DNA from: Methanococcoides methylutens
GTDB lineage: Archaea; Halobacteriota; Methanosarcinia; Methanosarcinales; Methanosarcinaceae
Assembly: GCF_000765475.1 (NCBI RefSeq)
Contig: NZ_JRHO01000014.1
Location: 365,687 to 389,686 of the forward strand
Direction of reading: 5' to 3'
DNA: 24,000 nt
The position numbers were made by a program, and so were the translations under genes. The notes under the pieces are model-generated. The model saw only the letters and a program-made list of their open reading frames with translations, did not search any database and was not told where the DNA came from. This document shows, in pieces, positions 3,630-22,879 of the stretch; position 1 is the stretch's first letter, and each line of letters starts with the position of its first letter.

Positions 3630-3810
3630 ATAAATGAACACCAAATGTTTTATTTTGTTATGCAGCGAGCTTATTCCATATTGAATGGTATAAGATATAC
3701 ATCAATGTAGATGAATGAAAAATACACTAACGAACTCAGACCGTTGTAACCTTTCCCCCTTCTTGATGTATGTGTTTATATTTGTTTCCTTCTATGTGTG
3801 AGAAGCAAAT

Positions 3811-3891
3811 GAAAATATATCATCATAATTATACTAATTATTAGAAACATATATATTCTAGAAAAAACAATTGAATTTCGCCTATGAGGTG
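3811..3891 (+). promoter_or_regulatory. Candidate archaeal promoter and RBS for arlB1
   Basis: TATA-like GAAAATATAT at 3811-3820 and a second AT box ACATATATATT around 3847-3857. Shine-Dalgarno GAGGTG at 3886-3891 lies 7 nt before the ATG at 3899. The same GAAAATATAT decamer recurs at 5076-5085. There is no experimental TSS. Confidence 0.35.
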
Positions 3892-3898
3892 ACTAAAC

Positions 3899-4459: not shown

Positions 4460-4473
4460 TGAGGTGTTTCAAA

Positions 4474-5034
4474 ATGTTTAAAAGATTCTTTAATAATGAT
4501 AAAGCGTTTACTGGTTTGGAAGCAGCAATCGTCCTGGTCGCATTCGTGGTCGTGGCAGCAGTTTTCAGTTATGTCATGCTCGGAGCAGGTTTTTATACAA
4601 CCCAGAAGAGCCAGGAAGTGGTACACACAGGTGTAGCACAAGCAAGTAGCAGTATTGAGATAAGTGGAGACGTTATTGCAGCAGGATACACTGGCAACGA
4701 TACACTTGCAAATATGACCATATTCCTGCAACTTACTGCAGGAGGTTCAGCAGTTGACATCAACAAAACCATAGTCACATACACAGACAGTACCAACCAC
4801 GCATCTTACACATTAAGTGATTCAGAAATGAATGTAACCGCAAAACACGGTGGTGCAGATGGTGACGAGCTCCTCGAAAAATTCGAGAAGTTTGAAGTGC
4901 TTGTTGATATTAGCGGATATGATGTGGGTCCAAACGAAGAGTTCCAGATTGAGATAAAGCCACCTGAAGGAGCTTCCTACACTCTGCAGAGGACAGCACC
5001 CCCACAAATCGATGCAATAATGACACTCTATTAA
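4474..5034 (+). CDS. arlB: Archaellin (archaeal flagellin) 2
   Basis: ORF 4456-5034. The ATG at 4474 is preferred because GAGGTG at 4461-4466 lies 7 nt upstream, the same geometry as arlB1. N-terminus MFKRFFNNDKA/FTGLEAAIVLVAFVVVAAVFSYVMLGAGFYTTQKSQEVVHTG. The C-terminal domain has diverged. Four sequons: NDT, NMT, NKT, NVT. Confidence 0.9.
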   Translation: MFKRFFNNDKAFTGLEAAIVLVAFVVVAAVFSYVMLGAGFYTTQKSQEVVHTGVAQASSSIEISGDVIAAGYTGNDTLANMTIFLQLTAGGSAVDINKTIVTYTDSTNHASYTLSDSEMNVTAKHGGADGDELLEKFEKFEVLVDISGYDVGPNEEFQIEIKPPEGASYTLQRTAPPQIDAIMTLY

Positions 5035-5040
5035 AGAGTG

Positions 5041-5067
5041 TCTCATCTTTTTTTATTTTTGAGATGA
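5041..5067 (+). terminator. Oligo-T terminator candidate after arlB2
   Basis: T7-A-T5 run at 5048-5060, 14 nt after the arlB2 stop. It is flanked by a short complementary pair, TCATCT (5043-5048) and AGATGA (5062-5067). Archaeal terminators are typically oligo-T tracts. This fits a separate abundant archaellin transcript. Confidence 0.45.
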
Positions 5068-5171
5068 AACAAAAAGAAAATATATTAATTAATAGATGTA
5101 ACTATCCTTCCTTAATTAGTATTATTATTATAATTATTATTAAAATTTTTATATGTCCAGGTGAGTAAAAA

Positions 5172-5870
5172 ATGGGTGATGCAGAAGGTTTCGACCAGTC
5201 AATGATTGATGATCTGATGACGAGTGCTGAAGGAGACACCGTAGAGTCCAAAGTTGCTGACTTGGAAGCCGAGGTAGCTGAAATAAAAGGTTCTGTTAAA
5301 AAGCTCCTCTTGGATATAAGGGAAACAATGAGCGTTCTTGAGAATCCTTTTCAGAACATTCAGGCAATATCCAATCTTACTGCCCAAACACCTAATCCGG
5401 CCCATGTGCCCCCTACACCGCCAATAGATGAAATTCCTGATGCTGTCGAGGTTGAACCAGTTCCCCAGAATATTTCCAATATTCACGATCAAAATATGGA
5501 AAATAATGCCATGGGGAACAATGATTATGCCCAACAGGCAAGTAATCTTCCTGATTTTAAGCTTGTAGACCCCCTCTCATTCCATAAGACGATAATATGG
5601 GGACGAGAGATGGTGGAAAAATATGATTCTGAAACTATGCAGGAACTAGTCGAAATATTCTCACTCCTGGGCTATATCCCTGATAACATAAAAGAGATTA
5701 TACTCAAAATCACAAATATACTTTATGAAAATAATAATCTAGACGAATCGGTCATGGACCTATACAAGCTTTACCATATACTCAATCCGGAAGATCCAAG
5801 CCTTGACTCCAAGGTACTGGATTTAGTTCTGAATGAAAACGATGCGGAGAGTCCATGTCAAATGAAGTGA
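5172..5870 (+). CDS. Archaellum accessory protein of the ArlC/D/E (FlaC/D/E) type: N-terminal coiled coil plus C-terminal FlaD/E-like domain
   Basis: 232 aa. Heptad-like N-terminus VADLEAEVAEIKGSVKKLLLDIRETMSVLENPFQ, a Pro/Asn-rich linker, and a C-terminal segment FHKTIIWGREMVEKYDSETMQELVEIFSLLGYIPDNIKEIILKI that resembles the FlaD/E domain. The position between arlB and arlF is the canonical euryarchaeal slot. RBS AGGTGAG at 5159-5165. Confidence 0.68.
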   Translation: MGDAEGFDQSMIDDLMTSAEGDTVESKVADLEAEVAEIKGSVKKLLLDIRETMSVLENPFQNIQAISNLTAQTPNPAHVPPTPPIDEIPDAVEVEPVPQNISNIHDQNMENNAMGNNDYAQQASNLPDFKLVDPLSFHKTIIWGREMVEKYDSETMQELVEIFSLLGYIPDNIKEIILKITNILYENNNLDESVMDLYKLYHILNPEDPSLDSKVLDLVLNENDAESPCQMK

Positions 5871-6328
5871 TAACTACATCGATACTTGTAATAGCAAGTG
5901 TTGTAGCAGTTGTAGCTTTAGTTAGTGCTGTTGTTCCTTCGGTGAATGAGTTGTCACGTTCTTACACTTCTGTTGCAGATGAAATGGGAACTGAGGTCAG
6001 AACTGATGTCGATATAATATTTATTTCCGCTCAGGGAAACAACGTTTCCGTTTGGATCAAAAATGTTGGTTCCTCCAGGATTCCTTTATCCTATTTTGGA
6101 ATGAGTGACATATTTATCACGTCCTCTTCTAATTACTGGCATCCTGATTTTGAAAGCACATCCAATCCCGCCTGGAATTATACACTTGAAAATGGTGATG
6201 GAAATACGTGGGACTCAGGTGAAACAATAAAAACAATTATCGAGTTAGATAATCTACCCAGTGATACCTATAAGTTGAATTTCATTCTTTATAATGGAGT
6301 CTCCGGGTCAGATATATTCTCCAAGTGA
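5855..6328 (+). CDS. arlF: Archaellum protein ArlF (FlaF)-like; N-terminal TM helix plus a beta-rich domain
   Basis: 157 aa. Archaellin-like hydrophobic N-terminus ITTSILVIASVVAVVALVSAVVPS followed by VRTDVDIIFISAQGNNVSVWIKNVGSSRIP. The call relies on the canonical F-G-H-I-J gene order. ArlF and ArlG are not distinguishable by eye. Confidence 0.6.
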   Translation: MSNEVITTSILVIASVVAVVALVSAVVPSVNELSRSYTSVADEMGTEVRTDVDIIFISAQGNNVSVWIKNVGSSRIPLSYFGMSDIFITSSSNYWHPDFESTSNPAWNYTLENGDGNTWDSGETIKTIIELDNLPSDTYKLNFILYNGVSGSDIFSK

Positions 6329-6332
6329 TAAT

Positions 6333-6806
6333 ATGGGCTTTGATACAGTAATTGTTGCATTTTTTGTAATCACAACCATGATAGTTGTAGCAAACACCTT
6401 TATGATCGGGATGAATGACTTTGTAGATTCAGCTTATGATGGCTATAGTGCAATACATACAACTACAATGGATAAAATGCAAACGGATATTGAGATACAG
6501 ACAATCTGGTTCAATTCAACAGAAAATCACCTTCATTTCATCGTGGAAAATACCGGTGAAACCAAATTGAACAATTTTAATCTATGGGACATTATTGTTA
6601 TTAAAAACGGTACTGCCGATTATATGGATGACAATAAATGGACAATGGATGTGTATGATGGCCAGCTCAACCCCAATATTCTGGATCCACTCGAAGAAAT
6701 GGAAGTTGAGCTACATGAAGAATACGGGGTAGGAGATGAAATTATTTTAAAAATTGTCACTCCAAACGGCATTATTTCCTCCAAAGGGCACACAATTGGT
6801 GGTTGA
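6333..6806 (+). CDS. arlG: Archaellum protein ArlG (FlaG)-like; N-terminal TM helix plus a beta-rich domain
   Basis: ORF 6294-6806. The ATG at 6333, 5 nt after the arlF stop, gives MGFDTVIVAFFVITTMIVVANTF...DIEIQTIWFNSTENHLHFIVENTGETKL. This parallels the ArlF architecture. The assignment is by gene order. Confidence 0.6.
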   Translation: MGFDTVIVAFFVITTMIVVANTFMIGMNDFVDSAYDGYSAIHTTTMDKMQTDIEIQTIWFNSTENHLHFIVENTGETKLNNFNLWDIIVIKNGTADYMDDNKWTMDVYDGQLNPNILDPLEEMEVELHEEYGVGDEIILKIVTPNGIISSKGHTIGG

Positions 6807-6807
6807 A

Positions 6808-7524
6808 ATGGAAGACGAAGACAATAATAAAAACATTGTTTCAAGCGGTAATAATGAAATTGATAAAAAACTCGGAGAAGGCATACCTCTGGGATCCCTT
6901 GTACTTATAGAAGGTGAAAACGATACCGGAAAAAGTGTTTTGTGCCAACAGCTAGTATTTGGCGGATTGAATCAATTGCATAGGATGGCATATTATTCAA
7001 CTGAAAACACAATCAAAAGTCTACTTATGCAAATGGAAAGTCTAAGTCTGGATGTATCCGATTTTTACAGTTGGGGATATCTAAGAATATTCCCTGTTCA
7101 CCTTTCTGGCGTTGAATGGACCTCTGAACAGATGAAAGGCACTCTTAATCTGATGGCAGAGCACATCAAGAGCATAAGGGAGAAGGTGATAATAGTAGAT
7201 TCCCTCACAATGTTTACGACATATTCCGATGAAGATAATATTCTTGGTTTCCTTACAAGCCTTAAAAATTTTTGTGATCGAGGCCTTACTATTTTCATCA
7301 CCCTACACCAGCATGCTTTCAAGGAAGATACACTTGTAAGGATCAGATCTGCATGTGATTGCCATCTATTTCTCAGGAAAGAGCAGCTTTCAGATCGATA
7401 TATCAGTGTTATGGAAGTTTCAAAGCTAAGGGGCGCAAAGAAAACTACAGGTAATATTGTGAGTTTTGAAGTTCAACCTGGATATGGACTGAAAATTATT
7501 CCTATATCTCATGCCAAAACATGA
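6808..7524 (+). CDS. arlH: Archaellum ATP-binding protein ArlH (FlaH), KaiC/RecA-like
   Basis: ORF 6754-7524. The ATG at 6808 lies 1 nt after the arlG stop, with GGTGG upstream. Walker A LIEGENDTGKSVLCQQ and a Walker B-like VIIVDSLT. The size (238 aa) and position before arlI fit ArlH. Confidence 0.9.
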   Translation: MEDEDNNKNIVSSGNNEIDKKLGEGIPLGSLVLIEGENDTGKSVLCQQLVFGGLNQLHRMAYYSTENTIKSLLMQMESLSLDVSDFYSWGYLRIFPVHLSGVEWTSEQMKGTLNLMAEHIKSIREKVIIVDSLTMFTTYSDEDNILGFLTSLKNFCDRGLTIFITLHQHAFKEDTLVRIRSACDCHLFLRKEQLSDRYISVMEVSKLRGAKKTTGNIVSFEVQPGYGLKIIPISHAKT

Positions 7525-7557
7525 AAATGATGATTTTTTTAGTTTTTGGAGGTTTAT

Positions 7558-9390
7558 ATGGTTGAATCTGAAGATATACTTATGAAGGAAGGTTTTGAAA
7601 AGGGCTTGGAAGCCTGCTTTCCTTTTAAACCAAAAAAATATGAAGGGCATGATCATTCTGACGTAACAAAATCGAGTATATATAAGATACTTCCTCCTGG
7701 AATGAAAAAAGAAGTCGAAAGGAATCACCATCTTCTGGAATACTTACACATATTGCCGATTGATACGATGGGAATTCCAAAATATGTATCCAAACTTGAA
7801 TCAAAACATGGTGACCTTGAGCATCCCAATTTAATATACAAAGCAAGTGACAGTAGCTACGTACATATTTATCCAAACAAGAACGGTGTAAGGGATTATT
7901 ATATTCCGATAGAACCAAACCTACTTACCGGTGTTGGCAACATCCTAAAAGAATTAGAACATAGGATGCTGGATTACCTCACGGGCCTTGACTTCGATCC
8001 GGAAAATATTGAAGAAAAAACGCAGATATTGATCGAAGCTATGGATGATATTTGTGTGATTGGAGAAAAGGAAGAAAATCAAGATTCTTTTGCAAATTTG
8101 AAAAAGGTCCTTGGTTCAAAGCTCTTTCCGAATAAAGGGAAAAAGGAAGACAATCACATCTATTTATCTGAAGATCAATATAAGGCCTTAAAATATTCTC
8201 TTCTCAGAGATAAAATTGGTCTGGGTTTTCTTGATCCGTATATATGTGACAGCAATATAGAAGATATTACCTGCAACGGATTAGGGTCGATATATTTAGA
8301 GCACAAAGTATTTGATGGGCTAAGAAGTGTCCTGGAGTTCACTGACCATGACATTCTCAACCACTTTATAATCAAGCTTGCAGAAAGGATAGGTAAGCCC
8401 ATTACGTTTAAAGATCCTATTGTGGATGCCTCACTTCCGGATGGTTCGAGGATTAACATCGTTTATGGTACCGATGTAAGTAAAAATGGAAGTAACTTCA
8501 CAATAAGGAAATTTAATGAAATTCCATTTAGTATCCTTCAGGTAATCGATAAAGGAACGATGGACTACAGAGTTGCAGGTTATCTTTGGATCCTTCTTTC
8601 TGAAGGTATGAGTGGCTTTATCTGTGGTGAAACTGCAAGTGGTAAAACGACTTCATTAAATGCCCTTACAACTTTCATTAGCCCTGATGCAAAACTGGTA
8701 TCTATAGAAGATACTCCTGAATTGCAGATTCCTCACAAAAACTGGACACGTGAGATGACCAGAGGTAGCACAAGAGGCGGAGGGGTTGGCGAAGGAAGTG
8801 GTTCGGATGTTACAATGTTCGACCTTCTGAAAGCTGGCTTAAGGCAGAGACCAAATTATATTCTTGTGGGTGAGATCAGAGGAGTAGAGGGAAATGTTGC
8901 GTTCCAGGCTATGCAGACCGGGCACCCAGTCATGTCAACCTTCCACGCTGCAAGCGTTGAAAAACTAATACAGAGGATTACTGCAGACCCCATAAACATA
9001 CCTAAAACATATGTTGATAATCTGAATTTTGTTATCATCCAGTCTGCTGTCAGAAGACCTGATGGAAAAATGGTAAGAAGAGTAATCAGTGTGAACGAAG
9101 TTCTGGGATATGATCCTCAAAAGGGTGTTTCTTTCGTTGAGGCCTTTTCATGGGACCCGGTTACTGATTCTTATGTTTTCAGTGCTCATGGTAGTTCTTA
9201 TCTTCTGGAACAGAAAATTGCAACAAGACTAGGTATTCCTTCGAAGAGAAAACATGTTGTTTATGATGAGATCGAGAAAAGAGCAAAAATATTAGAAAGA
9301 TTTCAAAAGGAAGGGATCACTAATTTCTATGATTTCTTTGATACCACCTCTAAAATTACAAAACATGGGATGCTGAGGATTAAATTCTAA
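7558..9390 (+). CDS. arlI: Archaellum motor ATPase ArlI (FlaI), type II/IV secretion ATPase superfamily
   Basis: ORF 7546-9390 (the track start is a TTG inside the RBS). The ATG at 7558 follows GGAGGT. Walker A GETASGKTTSLNAL, Walker B/Asp box NYILVGEIRGVEG, His box MSTFHA. Confidence 0.95.
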   Translation: MVESEDILMKEGFEKGLEACFPFKPKKYEGHDHSDVTKSSIYKILPPGMKKEVERNHHLLEYLHILPIDTMGIPKYVSKLESKHGDLEHPNLIYKASDSSYVHIYPNKNGVRDYYIPIEPNLLTGVGNILKELEHRMLDYLTGLDFDPENIEEKTQILIEAMDDICVIGEKEENQDSFANLKKVLGSKLFPNKGKKEDNHIYLSEDQYKALKYSLLRDKIGLGFLDPYICDSNIEDITCNGLGSIYLEHKVFDGLRSVLEFTDHDILNHFIIKLAERIGKPITFKDPIVDASLPDGSRINIVYGTDVSKNGSNFTIRKFNEIPFSILQVIDKGTMDYRVAGYLWILLSEGMSGFICGETASGKTTSLNALTTFISPDAKLVSIEDTPELQIPHKNWTREMTRGSTRGGGVGEGSGSDVTMFDLLKAGLRQRPNYILVGEIRGVEGNVAFQAMQTGHPVMSTFHAASVEKLIQRITADPINIPKTYVDNLNFVIIQSAVRRPDGKMVRRVISVNEVLGYDPQKGVSFVEAFSWDPVTDSYVFSAHGSSYLLEQKIATRLGIPSKRKHVVYDEIEKRAKILERFQKEGITNFYDFFDTTSKITKHGMLRIKF

Positions 9391-9403
9391 ATGAGGCGTT
9401 GAT

Positions 9404-11023
9404 ATGGATATCTCCGATATAAAAAATATTTTTAAGAGCAAAAATGAAGGTGATACATCTAAATCTTTGTCAGGAATAATATCCCGCAGGGTAGATCGCT
9501 TTAAAAAAGAGCTCTACATTAGCAACGATATGCTTTTCTCCCTAACTTACATGGCATCCATATCTACTGCAAATGTGAGCAGGGACAAGATATTCGAGAA
9601 CATATCGAAGAAAACAGAATATTGCCCATATATTTATTTTGAAAAGGTCAAAGATCTATCCCAAGACTGGCATTATGATTACGCTAATGCATGTGAGCTT
9701 GTATCCACTAAGGTAAAGCATATTAGACTGCAAGAACTTTTTAATAGGTTCTCCAATGCGATTGCATCAGGTGAGCCAGACATTGATTTTCTCAAGAAAG
9801 AGTGGACATTGTTTAAAACAATAAGGAAAGACGAATTCGAGAGAAATCTTGAAACCACAAAAGAATGGTCAAACGCTTACACTGCGCTGCTTGTCTCAAC
9901 TTCCCTTGTATCCATTATAATATTACTTTCTGTAATTCTGTATAATCTAGGAGATCCTGAGAAGACACTTTACGGTACAGCTTTTATCGTGTCAGGTATG
10001 GCTTTTGGGGGTGTAGGATTATTATGCAAAGGAGTTCCCAGAGATTCGATGGTCCATAGTTTGGATAAGAAATCAAAGGAACAGACCTTCATTTACAAAT
10101 GGATGCCAGTTACAATAATTCTAGCTATCCTCTCAGTTATAACACTGACATTGATACCTTCATTTTTGCATCCCATTGATTTCTATGTAGATATCAAAGG
10201 TCTCGGAATGATTCTAGCAGGATTGATCATGCTCCCGGTTGGAATCACAGCTCACAGAGATATTGTCAAAGTTAACAAAAGAGATGAAAGTTATACGACA
10301 TTTATCAGGAGTCTTGGGTCAATCGTTAGTGGATCGGGATTGACAATTCCAAAGGCCCTAATGAAAATAGATCCAAAAAATCTTGGTGAATTGAAGGGTG
10401 TGACTCTTGAACTCTATAAGAAGCTTACAATTGGCATGGATTCAAAGTTGAGCTGGGATCAATTTGTAGAGGAATCAGGTAGCTATTTGATTCACAAATT
10501 TACAAGTGTTTTTGTTGATTCCATTAATTTGGGAGGAGATGCCGAAGAGGTTGGAGAGCTAGTAAGTTCATCAAACCTTGAACTTGTCCTTTTGAGAATG
10601 AAAAGGGATCGTATTTCTACTTCATTCACATACCTTGTCGTACCCCTTCATTTGGCAATGGTGGCACTTCTTCTTTTCATTGGGCAGATACTTACGATAT
10701 TCACAAACATCATTTCAGATCTATTTGTACAATATGACATATCAGAATCTGCGATCGCAGGTGGTGCAGGTGGTGTTGGAATGAATTTGGGAATCTTTGG
10801 AGGAGTTCCGGTTGAGCTTTTAGGTCAATACGTCGTAGTGGTAATTATAGTATTAACTCTGGCCAATATTCTTGTAGTAAATGTTGTGAAAGGAGGCCCT
10901 TTATATCTGATAGTATTTTACGCTTCAATATTTTTTATTCTTTCGGGAATCATGATGATCAGTGTTCCTCCCGTAGTGGACATGTTCTTTTCGTTTGACT
11001 CATTTATTGAAGGAGGTATATGA
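9404..11023 (+). CDS. arlJ: Archaellum platform membrane protein ArlJ (FlaJ), TadB/C / GspF-like polytopic protein
   Basis: 539 aa. Soluble N-terminal domain followed by multiple hydrophobic helices (LVSTSLVSIIILLSVILY, VTIILAILSVITLTLIP, VVVIIVLTLANILVV, LIVFYASIFFILSGIMMISV). It lies immediately after arlI. RBS GAGGCG at 9393-9398. Confidence 0.9.
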   Translation: MDISDIKNIFKSKNEGDTSKSLSGIISRRVDRFKKELYISNDMLFSLTYMASISTANVSRDKIFENISKKTEYCPYIYFEKVKDLSQDWHYDYANACELVSTKVKHIRLQELFNRFSNAIASGEPDIDFLKKEWTLFKTIRKDEFERNLETTKEWSNAYTALLVSTSLVSIIILLSVILYNLGDPEKTLYGTAFIVSGMAFGGVGLLCKGVPRDSMVHSLDKKSKEQTFIYKWMPVTIILAILSVITLTLIPSFLHPIDFYVDIKGLGMILAGLIMLPVGITAHRDIVKVNKRDESYTTFIRSLGSIVSGSGLTIPKALMKIDPKNLGELKGVTLELYKKLTIGMDSKLSWDQFVEESGSYLIHKFTSVFVDSINLGGDAEEVGELVSSSNLELVLLRMKRDRISTSFTYLVVPLHLAMVALLLFIGQILTIFTNIISDLFVQYDISESAIAGGAGGVGMNLGIFGGVPVELLGQYVVVVIIVLTLANILVVNVVKGGPLYLIVFYASIFFILSGIMMISVPPVVDMFFSFDSFIEGGI

Positions 11024-11024
11024 A

Positions 11025-11924
11025 ATGGATTTATCAATTTTAACAGAAATAGATTCTTCAATTATCCTGGGGATTGTTGTTAGTATAATAGTGATGAGTG
11101 TCGCAGTCTTCTATGATAAATATAGGGGAGATAAGATTCCTGATCCTAATACCTCCACATCAAAATCATATGAAATGCTAGGCCAATTTATTGATTTTTC
11201 CAAATTTAAAGTATCGAATCCTTTTGTAGGAACTGGTCAAAAAATCAAGAAGCTAATTAACAGTGAATCTGATTCAAAAGAAAATGAAACATCAGAATTA
11301 GCAGTTGATAAGGAGTCAAATTATTCTGGCATTAAAGGTATTTTTACCAATTTCAGATCAAAGATATCATCTATTAAGTTAAGTTTGCCTGGAAAAGGTG
11401 ACCGGGAAAACGAGGCCATATTTACAGACATGGCTAGTTCTAAAAATGCTACTTCCACAGAAAATGAATCAAATATAGATTTTGATGTCGATAAAATCGT
11501 AGGAAATAAAAAGAATGAATTGGATTTTGATGATAATCTGATCAATGAGATGGCTACTGCAGGTAGTTTAGGCACTCAAATTGAAGTTGACGAACCGGAT
11601 TCGGATTTATCACTTAATGGTGATTTGTCTATTGATATGGATGAATTTGACTTCGGTTTTGGAGAGGTAGGAGACGAACAAGATGATAGCCAGGATGATG
11701 AATTTTCTTTCGAAATGTCTGAAGATGACCCTTACAATGATGATTTCTCCTTTGAAGATGACGACGATAGTTTCATAGAGTCATTGAAGAATGACATAAT
11801 TATTGAGGAGAAAAAGAAAGCCGATTTCATGTCAGAAATGAAAGGAGAAAATTTAGACATCGAAGAAATTAAAACCGAGCTTGAAGGGGTTTTAGAAAAT
11901 CTAAAAAGGTACAACACCCCCTAA
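11025..11924 (+). CDS. Hypothetical single-pass membrane protein with a long acidic low-complexity tail; last gene of the arl operon
   Basis: ORF 10995-11924. The ATG at 11025 lies 1 nt after the arlJ stop, and AGGAGG (11011-11016) is embedded in the end of arlJ. One TM helix, IILGIVVSIIVMSVAVFY, followed by DKYRGDK. The tail is Ser/Asn/Asp/Glu-rich with repeated D-[DE]-F-x-F motifs (DEFDFGFGE, DDEFSFEMSEDD, DDFSFEDDDD). The C-terminal stretch is helical or coiled-coil-like (IEEIKTELEGVLENLKRY). I recognise no known family. Confidence 0.7.
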   Translation: MDLSILTEIDSSIILGIVVSIIVMSVAVFYDKYRGDKIPDPNTSTSKSYEMLGQFIDFSKFKVSNPFVGTGQKIKKLINSESDSKENETSELAVDKESNYSGIKGIFTNFRSKISSIKLSLPGKGDRENEAIFTDMASSKNATSTENESNIDFDVDKIVGNKKNELDFDDNLINEMATAGSLGTQIEVDEPDSDLSLNGDLSIDMDEFDFGFGEVGDEQDDSQDDEFSFEMSEDDPYNDDFSFEDDDDSFIESLKNDIIIEEKKKADFMSEMKGENLDIEEIKTELEGVLENLKRYNTP

Positions 11925-12173
11925 AATAGGAGCTCAGTGGAAACATCAAAATCTCCATCATTAGAGTTAAATAATAAATTATTTCCAATATTATATAGTG
12001 CTCAAAAAAATAATATTTAGAATGAAATCTCTAGTAGAATTCCAAGCATTTGGACTCAGATCGAATTTGATAGTATTTATTCAAATTATAGCATAAAAAT
12101 AATTAATTGATTCATTAATTGATTTTAGTTTTATATTGATAGATAATTTAAAACAGGAAAAAGTGATTTAAAT

Positions 12174-12335
12174 ATGTTAGACGCAAAATACATAGGCCTT
12201 ATAGTCTTAGCATTGTTTTCAGGTTCAATGCTTGTTTATCAATGGCTTTCACTCTACAACAGACTTGACTATAGTGTTGTTTTCTATGCTGCACTTTTGA
12301 TATTTTCGTTTTCTTTAATGCTTTTGAAGAGATGA
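12174..12335 (+). CDS. Possible small (53 aa) two-helix membrane protein
   Basis: Below the track length cut-off. My translation is MLDAKYIGLIVLALFSGSMLVYQWLSLYNRLDYSVVFYAALLIFSFSLMLLKR. TATA-like TTTTATATTG at 12129-12138 lies about 40 nt upstream. A T7 run at 12381-12387 lies downstream. The RBS is weak and I could not test conservation. Confidence 0.3.
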   Translation: MLDAKYIGLIVLALFSGSMLVYQWLSLYNRLDYSVVFYAALLIFSFSLMLLKR

Positions 12336-12647
12336 ATTATCTGAAAGTGTAGAATAAAATGACCTGATACACACATTTAATTTTTTTAGTTACATGAGAA
12401 TATTTTTGATTGAATATGGATCGAAGCAGGGCTGCTTAGATATTAATTTATAATCAAAAAAGTAGTGTTTGGTAGATATAAGTGGAAATTTAAATAATCA
12501 GAAAAGTATCAAAAACCATATTTCGCAGATAGACCTATCTGAGGGAATATTTCAATATTTCAATAATCCATAATAACATTAATAAACCGACATGAATTCT
12601 AAAAAAGATGAGGAGACGGTTTTAAAAGAGCAGAACTGAATATTCCT

Positions 12648-13460
12648 TTAAATTTTCATGTAGATTTTGTCTTTTATACTCACAGGTTCAAATAAACTTC
12701 TCATTTCAGGAGGTAATGTTTCGGATTTACCTATTATGAGATAGCCACCTTTTGTGAGTGAATCGTAGAAGTTGCTTATCATTTTTACTTTTTGAGTTTC
12801 ATTGAAATATATCATCACATTCCTGCAGAAAACAGTGTCAAAATGCTTTGAAACTGGAGTATCGTTTGTTAGATCATATCTTTTGAATCTATATGATAGA
12901 TTTTGAATCTTTTTTACTTTAAAAGTATCCTCAGATTTTTCAAAATACTTGTGCCTGAGCATATAGTCAAGGTTTTTAATTTTATCCTTGAAGTACACCC
13001 CTTCTGAAGCATTTTTTAAGCACTTTTCATCTATATCAGTAGCATATATCGATATGTTCCAATCTTCAGGAAATACTTCTTTTGCACAGATCCCAATAGA
13101 ATAAGGTTCTTCTCCGTTAGAACACCCAGCACTCCAAAATCTAACCAGTTTGCTTTGTGATTTTTGCTTTCTTTCTATTATATCTGCAATCAAGTTATCC
13201 TTGAAAAATATGAACGGTGTTTTGTCTCGCATAAATTCAGTCACATTAATAGTAAGAGTATCTATGAGTGCAGCTAATTCACCTTCATTCGTTTCAAGAA
13301 ATCGCATATAATCCTTATAATCAGTGATTCCTACAACCCTCATTCTCAGATCAATTCTTCTCCGAAGGTATTTATCCCTATAACCATCGAGAACGATACC
13401 CGATAATTTAGATACCTTGTTTGTAAGAAGATCAAAGTAATCTGTATCACTTACATCCAT
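12648..13460 (-). CDS. cheR: Chemotaxis protein methyltransferase CheR
   Basis: 270 aa. SAM-binding motif VRFWSAGCSNGEEPYS and VFCRNVMIYF. Overlaps the 3' end of cheD by 10 nt. A T6 run on the minus strand (12601-12606) is a terminator candidate just downstream. Confidence 0.93.
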   Translation of the reverse strand: MDVSDTDYFDLLTNKVSKLSGIVLDGYRDKYLRRRIDLRMRVVGITDYKDYMRFLETNEGELAALIDTLTINVTEFMRDKTPFIFFKDNLIADIIERKQKSQSKLVRFWSAGCSNGEEPYSIGICAKEVFPEDWNISIYATDIDEKCLKNASEGVYFKDKIKNLDYMLRHKYFEKSEDTFKVKKIQNLSYRFKRYDLTNDTPVSKHFDTVFCRNVMIYFNETQKVKMISNFYDSLTKGGYLIIGKSETLPPEMRSLFEPVSIKDKIYMKI

Positions 13461-14113
13461 AATACCTTCCCATTGCTATATTTAACAATTAGACTTCCGT
13501 CAACTGCATTGAAAATAACATTTCTCCCCATACTTCCCCCTACATCTGTGGCTAATATTTCGATTTTCTCTTTTTTGAGAGTTTCTTCAACAGATTTAAT
13601 ATTCCGATCACCGATCTTAAGTATGTCCAGATTCATGTGCTTAAATATCTGGGCACCACCTGCAACCTTTGCAGAAATATGTTTTCGCCTTGCTCCATTG
13701 CAAACCATTTCTTCAAGCATTGTTGTTATGGCAGTTTCAGCATGTTTGGTTTTTCCATCGTTTGACGCTCCGGGGAGCAATACATGTGCAATACCAGCCA
13801 TACGACTTTTGTGATCGTAAAGTACCACACCTACACAGGAACCAAGTCCCATTGCTTTCAGTAGGATATTTTTTCCCACTTTGTATTCTCCAATGCCAGC
13901 AATCAACTCTCCTTCTAATAATTGTACATTGGAGTCCGGGGAGCTACCTTTTAAGTGGTTCTTTGCGCCTATTATCAGTTCACAATCTGGATGGCAAGAA
14001 CCAGATGCACACCTACCATCCATAGAACAGTATGAACCCACTACTGTATTATTTCTGCTCAAAACAATCGCTTTTGCGTTTGCTGTTGAGACGTATGCAA
14101 TATCGTTACTCAT
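13451..14113 (-). CDS. cheD: Chemoreceptor glutamine deamidase CheD with an N-terminal extension of about 70 aa
   Basis: 220 aa. The CheD core starts near IGIGEYKVGKNILLKAMGLGSCVGVVLYD...GIAHVLLPG...AKVAGGAQIF. The start at 14113 forms an ATGA overlap with the cheC stop, which supports the long N-terminus. Confidence 0.9.
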   Translation of the reverse strand: MSNDIAYVSTANAKAIVLSRNNTVVGSYCSMDGRCASGSCHPDCELIIGAKNHLKGSSPDSNVQLLEGELIAGIGEYKVGKNILLKAMGLGSCVGVVLYDHKSRMAGIAHVLLPGASNDGKTKHAETAITTMLEEMVCNGARRKHISAKVAGGAQIFKHMNLDILKIGDRNIKSVEETLKKEKIEILATDVGGSMGRNVIFNAVDGSLIVKYSNGKVLWM

Positions 14114-14712
14114 AATCCTTCCAATATATTCATAATGTTACTGAATAAATCATCTTCAGGTAACAATGCCAAATTTATTTCGATGTTTGACTCCGAATTT
14201 AGCTTGGTTTCAAATATAATTAGGTTATCACTTTTTTGTGCCATCTGGGAAACTACCCCATCCATAACTGCAGTAGCCATATCAACTGCATAATTTGGAG
14301 GAGAAGGTAACAGGATTATGTCCAGGAAGTCAGCTGAGGCATCACAAAATGATGATGCAAGTATGTTTCCAGCTTCCATTACTGCAGAAGCATACATCTC
14401 ATCGTCAACATCTTCTGTCCCATACATTTCCACTACAAGTTTGTCTGCAGATTTCATAGGTACCATGACGTATAGGTAACCAGAGTTGTTCCCCTCAAGA
14501 TCCTGTAATGCTATAAGGACACCTGCTACAACTTCTTCATACAATTCGCCACGCAAATCTGCTATACTTACGATTTTTACTTCTGGAACAGTAATTTCAA
14601 TATATTTGTCTAACAATTTTGAAAGTGAAGTGGCTGCATGTCCAGTACCAATATTACCAAGTTCTTTTAAAACCTCTACTTCCATTTCACTAAGACATTC
14701 TAATTCAAGCAT
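14110..14712 (-). CDS. cheC: CheY-P phosphatase CheC
   Basis: 200 aa. Both E-x2-N-x22-P active-site motifs are present: ELGNIGTGHAATSLSKLLDKYIEITVP and EAGNILASSFCDASADFLDIILLPSPP. Overlaps cheA by 8 nt. Confidence 0.9.
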   Translation of the reverse strand: MLELECLSEMEVEVLKELGNIGTGHAATSLSKLLDKYIEITVPEVKIVSIADLRGELYEEVVAGVLIALQDLEGNNSGYLYVMVPMKSADKLVVEMYGTEDVDDEMYASAVMEAGNILASSFCDASADFLDIILLPSPPNYAVDMATAVMDGVVSQMAQKSDNLIIFETKLNSESNIEINLALLPEDDLFSNIMNILEGL

Positions 14713-17700
14713 CTATATCTCCTCCTACTAGTGCTGATACATCCAGGATCGGTATGACCCTTCCATCCCCCAGAATTGTAACTCCAATAAATCCTTTAAC
14801 TTTTGACAAAACACTGCCCAGTGGTTTTATCACTATTTCTTGTTGATCAATTATTGAATCAACAAGTAACGCAACTTCTTCACTTTCCCTCTCTACAATA
14901 ATACCAACTTCTTTTTCCAATTGTTTGCCATACTCCCCAATATCAAAAAATTCTTTTAATCTTATTGCAGGCAGCAGCTTTTCTCTTACATAAAGCAGTG
15001 GCTGATCACGTATAAGTTTGAAATTATCTTTGTTAACATCGAGTGCTTCAACAACATTGGAAATTGGAATTGCATAAGTCTCATTCCCGGATTCAACAAC
15101 AAGTGACTTTATAATTGCAACTGTGGGAGGGAGGTTGATCCTCATCTTGGTACCTTTCCCGTTCTGGGAGTATATTTTTATTTTACCACCCAGTTTCTCG
15201 ACAGTTGTCTTCACGGCATCCATTCCGACCCCTCGTCCTGAGATCTCGGTCGCACTGTCTTTTGTAGATAGTCCTGAAGTAAAAATAAGCATCCTAATTT
15301 CATCTTCACTAAGTTTATCCAAATCAGTCGATGAAATGATCCCCTTTTCTAAAGCCTTATTCTTGATCTTTTTCAAATCCAGACCTTTCCCGTCATCTTC
15401 AATTTCAATTATGACGTTGCTCTTCTCCCTTTTTGCTGAAAGTTTTATATGTCCTGTTTGACTTTTACCGGCTTTTGCTCTTTCTTCCGGAGTTTCGATT
15501 CCATGATCGACACAATTCCTTACAAGATGAACCAAAGGATCACTAATTTCGTCAAGAATAGTCCTATCGAGTTCAGTTTCCTGACCCTCGATTTCAAAAC
15601 CTATGTCTTTTTCAAACTTTCTACTTAGGTCCCTCACCATTCTTGGGAATTTTTTGAATACCTTTTCGATTTTGACCATTCTCATCATCATAACTTCATC
15701 TTGTAAACTTGTGATGGATTTGTCCAAAATTGCAGTAGCCTCTTCCAGTTCGGGTATCCTATGCTCCTGGGAAATTTGAAGAAGGCAACCTTTGTTAATT
15801 ACAAGTTCTCCAACAAGGTTCATTATGCTATCAATATTGGAAACTCGAACACGTATTGTATCCTGCCTTTTGTTCCCCACTGATCCTTTTTTAGTAGTAT
15901 CCTGCTTGGCAGTGCAATTATCTTGATTTGATCCAATATTTCTGATGTTAACTACTTCTTTCTGGATATCTTCTTCCACCATTAACGGAGATTCATCTTC
16001 CTGAATACTTTCTTCAGACATTAACGAAACTTCATCTTTCTGAATACTTTCTTCAGACACTAACGAAACTTCATCTTTCTGAATACTTTCTTCAGACATT
16101 AACGAAACTTCATCTTTCTGAATACTTTCTTCAGACACTAACGAAACTTCATCTTTCTGAATACTTTCTTCAGAAATTAACGAAACTTCATCTTTCTGAA
16201 TACTTTCTTCAGAAATTAACGAAACTTCATCTTCCAGAATAATTTCTTCAGACATTAACGGAGATTCATCTTCCTGAATAATTTCTTCAGATATTAACGA
16301 GGATTCATCTTCCAGAATACTTTCTTCAAACATTAACGAAGCTTCTTCATCCTGAATGATTTCCTTTGCCGATATTGCACCGGAATAGTTATTCCCGAAA
16401 AGTGTGTTTATCAATTTCCTTAACTTTTCCTGAAGAGAACAATTTTCATTACTGAGAATTTCCTTAAATGTAAACATCATACTTTCATTTGTTTGAATAG
16501 TAGATTCGATTATTTCTTGCTCCCCTTTACTTCCTTCATTATTGGGAATATCCTCCTGAGCAATATTTTCCATTTCATCCTGATTTGGGAGTTGAATTTC
16601 CTCAGTGACTTCTTCTTGTTCACAGGAGATAATTTCAAAATTATCAATTTCAGAAATTTTGTTCATTACATCTTCCACTTTACCCGCATCCCCCTTGATG
16701 AAGGCTTTAAGTGAACCCTTAAAAGTGCTATCGATCTCTTCTTCCGTAGGTTCTGTTCTTATAACATACCCCGCTTCTTTCAAAGATTCAATAACAAGTA
16801 TCGCTTTCAATTCCTTTATATCAGAATCAGGAGCTAGTTTTACATTGAGTATGAGATTATGCCCCCCATCCCCCTTTTCACAATTCAGATCTTCTGTTTC
16901 CAAAGACCCTGATGTTTCGGAGACAGCTTCTTCCAGAGGACAAGAATCCACATTTTCCTCATTTTCTTCTTGATCACAGGAGATGACTTCAAAATTATCA
17001 ATTTCAGAAATTTTGTTCATTACATCTTCCACTTTACCCGCATCCCCCTTGATGAAGGCTATAAGTGAACCCTTAAAAGTGCTATCGATCTCTTCTTCTG
17101 TAGGTTCTGTTCTTATAACATGCCCTGCTTCTTTCAGAGATTCAATAACCAATATTGCTTTCAATTCCTTTATATCAGAATCAGGAGCTAGTTTTACATT
17201 GAGTATGAGATTATGTTCTGCGCCCTCATTTTTAGATTTCATATCTTCTGTTTCCAGAGATCTTACCACAGAAGAGACATCTTTTTTCAAAGAAGAATCC
17301 ACAGATTCGTTATGTTCTTCTTGATCACAGGAGATAACTTCAAAATTATCAATTTCAGAAATTTTGTTCATTACATCTTCCACTTTGCCCGCATCCCCCT
17401 TGATGAAGGCTTTAAGTGAACCCTTAAAAGTGCTATCGATCTCTTCTTCTGTAGGTTCTGTTCTTATAACATGTCCTGCTTCTTTCAGAGATTCAATAAC
17501 CAATATAGCTTTCAATTCCTTTATATCAGAATCAGGAGCTATTTTTACATTGAGTATGAGATTAGGTTCTCCGTCCTCATTTTCAGAATTTAGATCTTCT
17601 GTTTCCAGAGATCCTGTTACGGCAGAGACATCTTCTTCCCGATGAGTAAATTCCACATCTTCGGCTTCCTGCGTATCTATTATTGCAGAGGTGCTTTCTT

Positions 17701-18109
17701 CAGGGATGCGATCTTCAACTTCTTCATCTTTTTGAGATTTATACATGTCGAAAGCATTTAGAAGGTTGTCGATTTTAATCTCATCGTTGCCTTCGCTTTC
17801 TATTTTCTCCACCATTTCATTTATTCGATCTACAGTTGAAAGCATTATGTCTATAAGGTCGCTATCAATTACGATATCGCCACATTTTATGCCACTTAAA
17901 ACTTCTTCCATGCTGTGACAGAGTTTTTCAAGTGATGCATATCCAAGGAATCCTGCCATTCCTTTAATTGTGTGTGCTACTCTGAATATTTCATCCAAAG
18001 CGTCATTATCACCATTTTCCAGATCTACAAAAGACTGATTGAATATCTCAAGATACTCATTTACTTCCTGAAGGAAATCATCCTTGTAAGCGTCCATATC
18101 AGTTTGCAT
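14705..18109 (-). CDS. cheA: Chemotaxis histidine kinase CheA, unusually long (1134 aa) because of internal tandem duplications
   Basis: HPt (P1) with the phospho-His context RVAHTIKGMAG (H46). Dimerisation/P3 begins at TIRVRVSNIDSIMNLVGELV. The kinase N box is HLVRNCVDHGIE, G1 is IEDDGKGLD and G2 is SGRGVGMD. P5 is CheW-like (YAIPISNVVEAL...ILGDGRVIPILD). About 640 aa lie between P1 and P3, and most of that is repeats. Confidence 0.95.
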   Translation of the reverse strand: MQTDMDAYKDDFLQEVNEYLEIFNQSFVDLENGDNDALDEIFRVAHTIKGMAGFLGYASLEKLCHSMEEVLSGIKCGDIVIDSDLIDIMLSTVDRINEMVEKIESEGNDEIKIDNLLNAFDMYKSQKDEEVEDRIPEESTSAIIDTQEAEDVEFTHREEDVSAVTGSLETEDLNSENEDGEPNLILNVKIAPDSDIKELKAILVIESLKEAGHVIRTEPTEEEIDSTFKGSLKAFIKGDAGKVEDVMNKISEIDNFEVISCDQEEHNESVDSSLKKDVSSVVRSLETEDMKSKNEGAEHNLILNVKLAPDSDIKELKAILVIESLKEAGHVIRTEPTEEEIDSTFKGSLIAFIKGDAGKVEDVMNKISEIDNFEVISCDQEENEENVDSCPLEEAVSETSGSLETEDLNCEKGDGGHNLILNVKLAPDSDIKELKAILVIESLKEAGYVIRTEPTEEEIDSTFKGSLKAFIKGDAGKVEDVMNKISEIDNFEIISCEQEEVTEEIQLPNQDEMENIAQEDIPNNEGSKGEQEIIESTIQTNESMMFTFKEILSNENCSLQEKLRKLINTLFGNNYSGAISAKEIIQDEEASLMFEESILEDESSLISEEIIQEDESPLMSEEIILEDEVSLISEESIQKDEVSLISEESIQKDEVSLVSEESIQKDEVSLMSEESIQKDEVSLVSEESIQKDEVSLMSEESIQEDESPLMVEEDIQKEVVNIRNIGSNQDNCTAKQDTTKKGSVGNKRQDTIRVRVSNIDSIMNLVGELVINKGCLLQISQEHRIPELEEATAILDKSITSLQDEVMMMRMVKIEKVFKKFPRMVRDLSRKFEKDIGFEIEGQETELDRTILDEISDPLVHLVRNCVDHGIETPEERAKAGKSQTGHIKLSAKREKSNVIIEIEDDGKGLDLKKIKNKALEKGIISSTDLDKLSEDEIRMLIFTSGLSTKDSATEISGRGVGMDAVKTTVEKLGGKIKIYSQNGKGTKMRINLPPTVAIIKSLVVESGNETYAIPISNVVEALDVNKDNFKLIRDQPLLYVREKLLPAIRLKEFFDIGEYGKQLEKEVGIIVERESEEVALLVDSIIDQQEIVIKPLGSVLSKVKGFIGVTILGDGRVIPILDVSALVGGDIDA
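15981..16370 (-). repeat. In-frame 39-nt (13-aa) tandem repeat array, about 10 units, inside cheA
   Basis: On the plus strand, units starting A[T/C]TAACG... occur at 15981, 16020, 16059, 16098, 16137, 16176, 16215, 16254, 16293 and 16332. The five central units differ by only 1-2 nt (consensus ATTAACGAAACTTCATCTTTCTGAATACTTTCTTCAGAC). They encode SEESIQKDEVSL[V/M/I]. The outer units are more degenerate. Confidence 0.95.
16616..17640 (-). repeat. Three tandem modules of 351-354 nt (117-118 aa) inside cheA; P2-like domain plus linker
   Basis: The anchor CACAGGAGAT recurs at 16621, 16975 and 17326 on the plus strand. Cores of about 240 nt are near-identical; I count about 6-7 mismatches between copies 1 and 2 by eye. 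Each encodes NLILNVK[IL]APDSDIKELKAILVIESLKEAG[HY]VIRTEPTEEEIDSTFKGSL[KI]AFIKGDAGKVEDVMNKISEIDNFE[VI]IS. The linkers are more diverged but all contain SLETED. Confidence 0.92.
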
Positions 18110-19157
18110 TGCATTTCACCTCTAACATCCTAATAATTTCTTCAGGTATCTCAAAAATAGGTTTTACAACGTCAATTGCTCCGGCTTCGATTGCAGCTTT
18201 TGGCATCCCAAAAATAACACAGGTATCTTCACTGCATGCTATGGTAGATCCATTTGATTCTTTTATTTTTTTGAATCCGGATGCTCCATCGACCCCCATT
18301 CCCGTAAGTATTGTGGCGATTGAATTTTTCCCATATACATTTACAAAGCTTTCAACAGTCACATCGACAGAAGGCATTACAGCGTGCATCGGTTCACCTT
18401 TTATGATCTTTATCCTGGTTACATTCAAGGCTTTTCGAATTTGCATATGATAGCCACCAGGGGCGATGTAAGCAACTCCATTTTTTACTTTCTCATTATT
18501 TTCAGCTTCTTTTACTTCAAGTTCTGATAAGGTATTCAATCTCGCAGCTAACTGGCTACAAAAATTGCCTTCTGGCATATGCTGGACTACAAAAACCGAT
18601 GCTGGCAGGTTGCCTGGCAATCTTGGAATTATTTGCTCAAGAGAAGAAGGGCCACCTGTTGATGAACCAATAAGTACTCCCATATTTTGCATCTCCGGAC
18701 AATTCCAGTTTCCATTTATTACCTCACCTTTGAACTTTTTCAGGTTGAGTAGTCTTATAATGTTTGGATTTGAATTGTGGATGCTACGAACTTTCGTTAT
18801 TAGCTCGCTTTCGCTCTTAGCTATTTCTTGTAAGCCACTGGGTTTTGTTATAAAATCGATCGCACCAAGTCTCAAAGCTTCCAGAGCTTCTCTAGAACCC
18901 TTTTTGGTGAGAGAGCTAAACATTATAATAGGTATCGGAGTTGTATCCATTATAGCTTCAACGGCTGCCAGCCCATCCATGACAGGCATATTAACATCCA
19001 TTACTATAACTTCCGGCTTTAGCTTATTCGCTTTTTCTACAGCTTCTTTGCCATTTTTTGCAATCCCGATGACTTCTATATCGCCAGCACTCTCAAGCAT
19101 GTCTCTTGCTGCCCTTCTCATTAAGGCAGAATCATCAACAACAAGGGTTTTGATCAT
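18099..19157 (-). CDS. cheB: Chemotaxis response regulator protein-glutamate methylesterase CheB
   Basis: 352 aa. REC domain (LVVDDSALMRR, VIVMDVNMPVMDG, KP). Catalytic domain with GSSTGGP (Ser), VVQHMP (His) and LTGMGVDG (Asp). Overlaps cheA by 11 nt. Confidence 0.95.
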   Translation of the reverse strand: MIKTLVVDDSALMRRAARDMLESAGDIEVIGIAKNGKEAVEKANKLKPEVIVMDVNMPVMDGLAAVEAIMDTTPIPIIMFSSLTKKGSREALEALRLGAIDFITKPSGLQEIAKSESELITKVRSIHNSNPNIIRLLNLKKFKGEVINGNWNCPEMQNMGVLIGSSTGGPSSLEQIIPRLPGNLPASVFVVQHMPEGNFCSQLAARLNTLSELEVKEAENNEKVKNGVAYIAPGGYHMQIRKALNVTRIKIIKGEPMHAVMPSVDVTVESFVNVYGKNSIATILTGMGVDGASGFKKIKESNGSTIACSEDTCVIFGMPKAAIEAGAIDVVKPIFEIPEEIIRMLEVKCNAN

Positions 19158-19171
19158 ATTTTACCCGGCCT

Positions 19172-19534: not shown

Positions 19535-19551
19535 GTAATCTCACCTTTTAA

Positions 19552-20828: not shown

Positions 20829-20871
20829 TTAGATCACCTACAAAAAGATATTAAAAGGAGGTCAAACCTCC

Positions 20872-22827: not shown

Positions 22828-22879
22828 AAATACTCCTCCTGACATGATGGATTATTATTATTATCATTATTATGAGTTG

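Follow-up and report, generated by a model that had tools for sequence, protein, structure and literature searches.

Introduction

The accepted parts list of the archaellum (ArlB, ArlC/D/E or ArlX, ArlF, ArlG, ArlH, ArlI and ArlJ) has been stable for years. Two of its accessory components are the closest described counterparts of the protein treated here, the 299-amino-acid (aa) product of the last gene of an archaellum (arl) operon of Methanococcoides methylutens, which follows arlJ in a 24,000-nucleotide (nt) stretch of contig NZ_JRHO01000014.1 (positions 365,687 to 389,686); this stretch is referred to as the window. ArlX (FlaX) of the Crenarchaeota is, like this post-arlJ protein, an arl2 accessory protein with an N-terminal transmembrane (TM) segment and a cytoplasmic helical part, and in both sets of lineages the ArlC/D/E-like protein is absent or soluble. 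The cytoplasmic part of ArlX is thought to contact the ArlH/ArlI motor, and ring formation and ArlH/ArlI binding are ArlX traits. However, arlX lies between arlB and arlG, whereas our gene comes after arlJ, and ArlX is a long coiled coil, whereas our protein is mostly disordered and acidic. The gene also coexists with an ArlC/D/E-like gene, which is the counterpart of ArlX according to Makarova et al. (PMC4858521). ArlC/D/E themselves resemble the post-arlJ protein in being fast-evolving accessory proteins of the euryarchaeal archaellum, cytoplasmic and in many cases not recognisable from their sequence, but they carry no TM segment and are encoded upstream of arlF/arlG.

Parallels of layout are found further afield. 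HubP/FimV/TspA of the Gammaproteobacteria, which are associated with motility and chemotaxis, combine a single TM segment with a low-complexity, very acidic stretch in the cytoplasm and, at the C-terminus, a short conserved motif. Unlike the post-arlJ protein they are bacterial, much larger and equipped with a periplasmic LysM domain, where our protein has an extracytoplasmic stub of 11 aa; the likeness is one of layout only. ZipA of the Escherichia coli divisome, a textbook membrane tether, has an N-terminal TM segment and a small C-terminal domain for binding FtsZ, joined by a charged linker that is long and flexible. It is an unrelated protein of an unrelated machine and can serve as a mechanistic analogue only.

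The gene after arlJ goes unmentioned in a 2021 history review (PMC10117864), in Makarova 2016 (PMC4858521) and in the Chloroflexota archaellum paper (PMC12488501). An October 2026 survey likewise mentions no gene after arlJ and found no further conserved genes in type-IV-filament loci (PMC13705601), while the cluster figure of Desmond 2007 shows unnamed hypothetical genes without discussing them (PMC1914349). Literature searches for the M. burtonii or A. fulgidus locus tags returned nothing relevant. The protein was probably overlooked because the model organisms are either of the arl1 type (Haloferax, Methanococcus, Pyrococcus) or crenarchaeal (Sulfolobus), and because it evolves too fast for family databases.

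A conserved gene at the end of arlJ

The junction between arlJ and the gene under study comprises three elements:

9404-11023, + strand: arlJ, encoding the 539-aa archaellum platform protein of the arl2 type (NF004703 at 756.6 bits, cut-off 570; Pfam T2SSF)
11011-11016, + strand: AGGAGG, a Shine-Dalgarno-like hexamer that lies in the final codons of arlJ and 8 nt ahead of the next gene's ATG
11025-11924, + strand: coding sequence of the post-arlJ protein (P0001), 299 aa plus stop, last gene of the operon; frame open from the ATG at 11025 to the TAA at 11922-11924

A first-pass annotation, made from the letters of the window alone, had placed an open reading frame (ORF) 1 nt past the arlJ stop and behind AGGAGG, and its coordinates proved exact: arlJ ends in GGT ATA TGA (stop 11021-11023), a single spacer base follows (A, 11024), and then comes the ATG. 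GGAGG is kept in place at the junctions of three Methanococcoides orthologues and at that of L012 (genome G019), from another genus of the family. A word-indexed search returned eight relatives at 39-93% identity, every one labelled hypothetical; the M. burtonii orthologue is ABE51349.1 / Q12YX7. Six of 41 related genomes have the gene, exactly the six with an arl2-type arlJ, and in all six it begins 5-27 nt past the end of the ArlJ match, a distance that includes the arlJ stop codon since the match does not. Orthologues, kept position, conserved junction and a ratio of nonsynonymous to synonymous substitution rates (dN/dS) below 1 uphold the earlier opinion that the gene is real and its co-expression with arlJ very likely; the protein is probably translated in step with ArlJ.

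Pairwise among four Methanococcoides species, dN/dS is 0.36-0.46 for this gene versus 0.08-0.16 for arlJ, so selection on it is purifying but relaxed compared with arlJ. Might the frame be non-functional, a passenger or an ORF in decay that chance or overlap constraints keep open? The higher dN/dS and the mostly low-complexity protein would agree with this, as would some relatives whose post-arlJ ORFs look frame-shifted (L041, L152, L163). However, dN/dS is clearly below 1, the Shine-Dalgarno sequence, start codon and frame are conserved, and the gene sits at an unchanged position in many families of the phylum, three blocks of its protein holding invariant residues. We therefore regard a non-functional ORF as extremely improbable.

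Distribution and extent of the family

Does the gene accompany arlJ beyond its own family? The phylum was sampled evenly with 151 genomes, of which 52 have an arl2-type (NF004703) ArlJ and 99 do not. A profile of the type-1 family, to which the window protein belongs, matches 19 of the 52 and none of the 99. The matching gene adjoins arlJ in 16 of these genomes, is separated from it by one gene of ~0.7 kb in two, and lies in a fragmented assembly in the last. In the other 33 arl2 genomes the 1.9 kb 3' of arlJ were examined, and at each of the 33 loci an ORF on the same strand begins where arlJ ends. Thirty of these ORFs carry one or two N-terminal TM segments, while three are short, acidic and devoid of TM segments; 25 of the 33 match a hidden Markov model (HMM) of the C-terminal domain at E < 1e-3, nine of the 25 being contigs used in training that model. 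Thirty arl1-type loci (NF004704 above cut-off) showed neither such an ORF nor an HMM match. A lack of conservation 3' of arlJ in relatives had been named beforehand as a refuting outcome, but the gene clearly follows arl2-type arlJ throughout the phylum sample. On the evidence of these searches the family spans the phylum, being found behind arl2-type arlJ in Methanosarcinaceae, Archaeoglobales, Methanocella, Methanoliparum/Methanolliviera and in six other families; the gene is not lineage-specific, and its family is rapidly evolving.

Of eighty public arlJ loci, collected via an ArlJ alignment, almost all have an ORF directly 3' of arlJ. At the 23 type-1 loci the gap between arlJ and the family gene ranges from -8 to +12 nt, and an ATGA overlap is frequent. 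The post-arlJ ORFs were sorted into the following groups:

G1: Methanosarcinaceae and Archaeoglobales; one TM segment (23/23); clear orthologues
G2: Methanocella, Ca. Methanolliviera and Ca. Methanoliparum; one TM segment (8/8)
G3 and G4: additional arl2 clusters of Methanosarcina; no TM segment
G5: ANME-2-like Methanosarcinales; 133-152 aa; no TM segment
G6: short Methanomicrobiales-like forms; no TM segment
G7: Chloroflexota; mixed forms
GM: from the phylum sample, six further families; two-TM hairpin; 279-457 aa; aligned separately

What unites the family is a predicted build of three parts: an N-terminal membrane anchor (one TM segment, or a two-TM hairpin in some families) with the remaining protein in the cytoplasm; a long, acidic and mostly disordered linker of variable length; and one or two short amphipathic acidic helices with a conserved helical domain of about 50 aa at the C-terminus. 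This domain has the signature DDxLΦxSLKx...ΦΦ[RK][DE]Φ[KR]Gxx(L/F)DxxxLxxELxxΦLxxΦ. Its HMM returns the window protein at E = 3e-33 and the type-1 relatives at 1e-10 to 1e-29. Taken by itself, the C-terminal motif lacks specificity: ribosomal protein uL1 scores E = 1.6e-3 against the same HMM with its C-terminus (DMDVEKLAENIETVLSRVEQSLEKGK; genome of the window, C15:160813-161538), and uL1 had been drawn in by jackhmmer from the C-terminal 70 aa. It is a clear false positive and was rejected as a relative. Because of this contamination we relied instead on leave-one-group-out searches, hhalign comparisons of independently aligned groups and composition-preserving shuffles.

Searched against 14,581 six-frame ORFs, leave-one-group-out HMMs recovered G2 (E = 1e-5), G4 (3e-5), G5 (2e-8) and G1 (9e-4), and did not recover G3, G6 or G7. 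In hhalign, G1 and G2 align at 95.6% probability (E = 1e-8), and the separately aligned GM matches G1 at 95.0% (4e-8) and G2 at 96.5% (9e-10). G3, G4 and G5 align pairwise at about 95% (1e-7 to 1e-8), and G1+G2 against G3+G4+G5 at 80.5% (1.3e-5). G6 or G7 against the archaeal groups reach 3-32%. Composition-preserving shuffles agree, support for Chloroflexota being limited to a few members (L100, L103 and L111, p <= 0.008). By these comparisons the link of the TM-less G3-G5, that is, the Methanosarcina duplicate clusters and ANME-2, to the family is probable, and that of the Chloroflexota is suggestive. G6, unsupported by the tests, and G7, supported for few members only, were not counted as members.

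A profile search of 1.84 billion representative proteins gave only 39 matches, which fits a small, fast-diverging family. One of these, P0032 (1034 aa), is a repeat protein and a false positive.

Architecture of the protein

The post-arlJ protein has a pI of 4.07, with 71 D+E versus 29 K+R and a net charge of -42. Its parts, all encoded on the + strand, are as follows:

aa 1-11: acidic stub before the TM segment, net charge -3 by computation (N-terminus MDLSILTEIDSS)
11058-11111: single N-terminal TM helix, aa 12-29; Kyte-Doolittle maximum 2.64 at residue 20; AlphaFold2 (AF2) helix 11-34, pLDDT (predicted local distance difference test) score ~75
11112-11135: juxtamembrane YDKYRGDK, aa 30-37, with a conserved Y-D-[KR]-Y core; Y30, D31 and Y33 invariant in alignment A1
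11136-11480: linker of nearly neutral charge and low conservation, in which two weak helices are predicted (aa 70-78 and 102-116); net charge +1 over aa 61-135; pLDDT < 50 over aa 37-150
11481-11561: central conserved motif FDVDKIVGNKKNELDFDDNLINEMATAG, aa 153-179, with two short predicted helices (AF2 155-163 and 170-179, pLDDT 57-66)
11565-11774: hyper-acidic region predicted to be disordered, aa 181-250, net charge -29, with aromatic-acidic motifs (DEFDFGFGE at 11640-11666); pLDDT < 50
11757-11915: conserved C-terminal domain, aa 245-297, bearing the family signature (DDDDSFIESLKNDIII..KADFMSEMKGENLDIEEIKTELEGVLENLKRY); recognised from conservation, AF2 and hhalign (95-97%)

The first-pass annotation had described an N-terminal TM anchor followed by a cytoplasmic tail. 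The anchor is supported, aa 12-29 being the only hydrophobic segment of the protein and exactly one N-terminal TM segment being present in 23 of 23 type-1 relatives. The predicted topology stands as well. Lysine and arginine near the TM segment occur only on its C-terminal side, and the GM hairpin has basic residues on both flanks, which would place the GM tail in the cytoplasm too, in agreement with an N-out/C-in orientation of the single-TM forms. The sequence motifs that had been quoted, DKYRGDK (aa 31-37), DEFDFGFGE (aa 206-214), DDEFSFEMSEDD and DDFSFEDDDD, are all present.

An extremely acidic, disordered tail had also been claimed, and here the disorder holds while the uniform acidity does not. 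The stretch aa 30-135 is near neutral (net +1), and aa 136-299 (net -40) carry nearly all the negative charge. The AF2 model, built on a 31-sequence alignment, has a pLDDT of 50 and a predicted template modelling (pTM) score of 0.17, with 175 residues below pLDDT 50, and the tail is best modelled as mostly disordered, acidic in its second half and ending in a short amphipathic helical tip. The idea of a coiled-coil-like C-terminus had to be abandoned: the predicted helices span aa 249-257, 268-272 and 279-296 (pLDDT 69-85), that is, one amphipathic helix of 18 residues and two shorter ones.

Three blocks are conserved, FDxDxIVxxKKxELDFDDxLLxEM, DxxEFDxGF and DDxDxΦΦxSLKxDI...KΦxFMxxMxGxxLDΦxxΦKxELExVLxxLK, and they coincide with the short AF2 helices. 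Invariant residues are D156, K162, K163, E165, L166, D167, F168, D169, D170, L172 and M176 in the central motif; D200, D204 and F208 in the hyper-acidic region, where G211 and F212 are nearly invariant; and D245, D248, L254, K255, D257, K265, F268, M269, L277, D278, K283, L286 and L290 in the C-terminal domain.

Charge is the obvious handle for a role in regulation or assembly, in which the acidic tail would bind the positive cytoplasmic face of ArlJ, or the docking site on ArlI, and act as chaperone, placeholder or brake on ArlI-ArlJ engagement. The extreme net charge of aa 136-299 invites this idea, and so do the tight translational coupling to arlJ and the retention of the gene in a cluster reduced to arlI and arlJ (see below). 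On its cytosolic side ArlJ bears conserved positive charges that are proposed to mediate the binding of ArlI (PMC12488501) and would offer a suitable partner surface. However, the acidic stretch varies in length and sequence among relatives, and it is specific helices, not charge, that stay conserved; moreover, family members of 201-211 aa have a net charge of merely -2 to -13. We consider a regulator or assembly factor of this kind unlikely.

Is the protein a known component in disguise? Pfam, NCBIfam and PDB sequence searches with the window protein, 11 family members and 10 divergent relatives returned only noise, and its earlier description as an uncharacterised archaellum-operon protein is thereby upheld. 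A likeness to ArlX had been suggested. It survives at the level of architecture, a TM anchor with cytoplasmic helices, and fails at the level of sequence and operon position: the ArlX model PF24151 has no match in the whole genome at E <= 1 and none in Pfam scans of 11 members, and the slot between arlB and arlG is held by the ArlC/D/E-like ORF at 5172-5870. We rejected ArlX on these grounds. ArlC/D/E was rejected too, as PF05377 (FlaC_arch) and PF04659 (FlaD/E) gave no match at E <= 1 among the 11 family members, and hhalign of the family against the operon's own ArlC/D/E-like protein gave a probability of 0.1%. An archaellin or type IV pilin-like protein was discarded since the acidic N-terminus lacks both the basic n-region and the [KR]G-cleavage motif of a class III signal peptide, and there is no PF01917 match. 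Altogether, we hold it very probable that the gene encodes a real, conserved archaellum-operon protein built from a TM anchor and an acidic tail.

Genomic context

The operon and its neighbour in the window are composed of:

3899-5034, + strand: two archaellin genes (arlB), operon head; the first with PF01917 at E = 3e-39, the second judged from its sequence
5172-5870, + strand: soluble ArlC/D/E-like gene, from the reading of window ORFs; no TM segment
5855-6328, + strand: arlG (NF052591)
6294-6806, + strand: arlF (NF052590)
6754-7524, + strand: arlH (NF004723/NF052589)
7546-9390, + strand: arlI (NF058587, 683 bits)
12648-22845, - strand: F1-type chemotaxis (che) operon, convergent with the arl operon (window annotation)

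The first-pass annotation had taken this for the canonical euryarchaeal arl operon, a premise that turned out to be wrong. Since arlG precedes arlF, the operon is of the arl2/fla2 type and not of the canonical arl1 order; the arlG-arlF order characterises the arl2/fla2 type of Methanosarcinales, Methanospirillum, Archaeoglobus and Crenarchaeota (Desmond et al. 2007, PMC1914349). A second archaellum cluster, of the arl1 type, is present in the same genome, with its ArlJ at C6:822996-824627 (NF004704, 700 bits). All 13 Methanococcoides species have an arl1-type ArlJ, and four of the 13 have the arl2 operon with the post-arlJ gene. CheW/CheA occur in the same four species only; the arl2 cluster, the post-arlJ gene and the che genes of Methanococcoides therefore behave as one gained-or-lost island (3645-23594 in the window).

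CheW was chosen as chemotaxis marker instead of the CheF profile, because that profile misses the genome's own ORF at the CheF position. This 266-aa ORF (19552-20352, - strand) lies between cheW and cheY, the place of CheF in related loci. It gave no match to PF04283 (CheF-arch), its sole match being a weak HTH_45 at the C-terminus. In M. burtonii (G006) a CheF-arch match (2e-12) is found ~0.2 kb downstream of cheW, where the counterpart of this ORF would lie, and we take the ORF for a probable divergent CheF.

A complete F1-type che operon thus adjoins the post-arlJ gene, which sits between the arl and che operons. A similar arrangement is seen around another member, P0043 (arlG/F-arlH-arlI-arlJ-X-...-cheW-cheF-cheY-cheB-cheA-cheC, X being the family gene), and in L151 the gene stands beside cheW-cheF. 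Such neighbourhoods could speak for a polar organiser, a HubP/FimV-like acidic membrane hub that links motors to, or spaces them from, a polar cap or chemosensory arrays. The layout of the protein would parallel that of HubP/FimV, and the arl2 cluster, the gene and che are present or absent together in Methanococcoides. A review describes the polar cap as being of unknown composition (PMC10117864). Polar caps have been described in arl1-type species, though, and these are without the family; the protein has no LysM or other outside domain, and neither Pfam nor NCBIfam, whose FimV models were included, returned a match.

The company that the gene keeps elsewhere weighs further against such a hub. 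Secure member P0035 closes a reduced cluster, arlI-arlJ-DUF4352-X, with a genuine ArlI (NF058587, 718 bits) and a genuine ArlJ (NF004703, 749 bits), and an ANME-2-like genome (G031, 94% complete) has an arl2 cluster with a G5-type ORF, while CheW/CheA were not found in it. From the reduced arlI-arlJ cluster with a member, and from the G5-type ORF in a genome without detectable CheW/CheA, we conclude that the protein belongs with the ArlI/ArlJ core and not with chemotaxis, although the link of G5 to the family is only probable. A polar organiser accordingly appears distinctly unlikely. The reduced arrangement is seen in L148-L150 (1960-6663), with a divergent lipid-synthesis gene upstream and no arlB/G/F/H nearby. 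A DUF4352 gene between arlJ and the family gene seemingly also occurs in two genomes of the phylum sample (G122 and G092; gap of ~0.7 kb).

The reduced cluster of P0035 and the G5-type ORF of G031 bear on a more direct coupling to chemotaxis, in which CheY, CheF or the ArlC/D/E-like switch would dock on the acidic amphipathic helices (DDxLLxxL) as on peptides. The adjoining che operon makes the idea attractive, and DDxLΦxxΦ helices bear a loose likeness to the peptides by which FliM and CheZ bind CheY. However, the motif is generic and there is no Pfam or NCBIfam match to the CheZ or FliM families. A probable relative occurs where CheW/CheA were not found and a secure member in a reduced arlI-arlJ cluster, and the idea of a decoy surface for CheY/CheF, raised at the outset, gained no support from them. 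Furthermore, archaeal CheY acts through CheF and ArlCDE (PMC7534055). A role in chemotaxis coupling seems to us quite improbable.

Model and implications

What, then, might the post-arlJ protein do? We propose that it is a flexible membrane tether or adaptor. The anchor would be placed in the membrane beside the ArlJ platform, and the long, acidic, disordered linker of variable length would reach into the cytoplasm. There the C-terminal domain, and probably also the central ELDFDDxLLxEM helix, would dock on ArlI/ArlH or on the soluble ArlC/D/E-like protein. Docking would hold or position a cytoplasmic motor component at the membrane, which is the job of the ArlX TM helix in crenarchaeal arl2 motors. 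In favour of a tether we count the strict linkage to arl2-type arlJ, the absence from 30 arl1 loci, the member in the reduced arlI-arlJ cluster, the operon's ArlC/D/E-like protein without TM segment, and the cytoplasmic tail predicted with either type of anchor.

Several observations weigh against this proposal. The AF2 model is poor overall, which means that the 'docking domain' is deduced from conservation alone. The arl1-type euryarchaeal motors work without such a protein, and a membrane tether is therefore no general requirement. The TM-less G3-G5 would need another route to the membrane, for which the N-termini of G4 and G5, but not of G3, are amphipathic. In addition, this is a diverged family with a short helix for a motif, and short-helix profiles gave one clear false positive (uL1). 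Taken as a whole, the account of the last gene of the arl2 operon as a phylum-wide family of membrane tethers or adaptors is the best explanation we can offer, and we give it an even chance; for the flexible tether mechanism specifically, the chance falls somewhat short of even. What probability the readings considered here leave over belongs to something not yet thought of.

More tentatively still, the family might be an unrecognised structural subunit of euryarchaeal arl2 archaella, a tether that fixes the ArlH/ArlI/ArlCDE-like assembly by ArlJ and functionally replaces the TM anchor of crenarchaeal ArlX. It would be found in Methanosarcinales, Methanomicrobiales-like families, Methanocellales and Archaeoglobales, its anchor module having been exchanged between one TM segment, a two-TM hairpin and an amphipathic helix, and the bacterial archaella of Chloroflexota may include descendants of it.

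What are the implications for the archaellum? A protein encoded after arlJ in every arl2 locus of the phylum sample would be an overlooked component. It is a candidate answer to the long-standing question of what keeps the euryarchaeal arl2 motor's cytoplasmic part at the membrane, and aa 153-179 and 245-297 are defined candidate peptides for binding. Even if the mechanism is wrong, the gene is a marker that separates arl2 from arl1 operons.

Divergent and irregular members

A number of family loci depart from the common pattern. P0010 (441 aa, on a 1.8-kb metagenome contig) resembles the centre of the family in its first ~120 aa (…SKKDELDFDDDILNEM), fused to a complete acyl-CoA dehydrogenase; it was set aside as most likely a chimeric assembly or a mis-called start. 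L041, a contig labelled as a metagenome-assembled genome (MAG) of a Christensenellaceae bacterium, carries a Methanosarcina-like arl2 cluster with an ArlJ 68% identical, and the ORF that follows this arlJ is broken into two overlapping frames (5620-6015 and 5957-6613). A binning error combined with a frameshift or assembly error is the probable cause.

Among the TM-less groups, the G3 N-termini (L067-L079, second arl2 clusters of Methanosarcina) start with three to four tandem repeats of seven to eight residues, NGLKxLxx, for example MNGLKNLKINGLKDLKVNGLKYLRINELKHL. The N-termini of G4 and G5 form a strongly amphipathic predicted helix, whose hydrophobic moment ranks in the 96th percentile or higher among the N-termini of their genome. 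Finally, in an ANME-2-like Methanosarcinales MAG (L014:3018-3479 and L085:5516-5977) the post-arlJ ORF has in-frame TAG codons at positions 35 and 83, where relatives show E or R, and is otherwise open and conserved to its TAA. Since both in-frame stops are TAG, the sequence suggests amber read-through (pyrrolysine) rather than decay.

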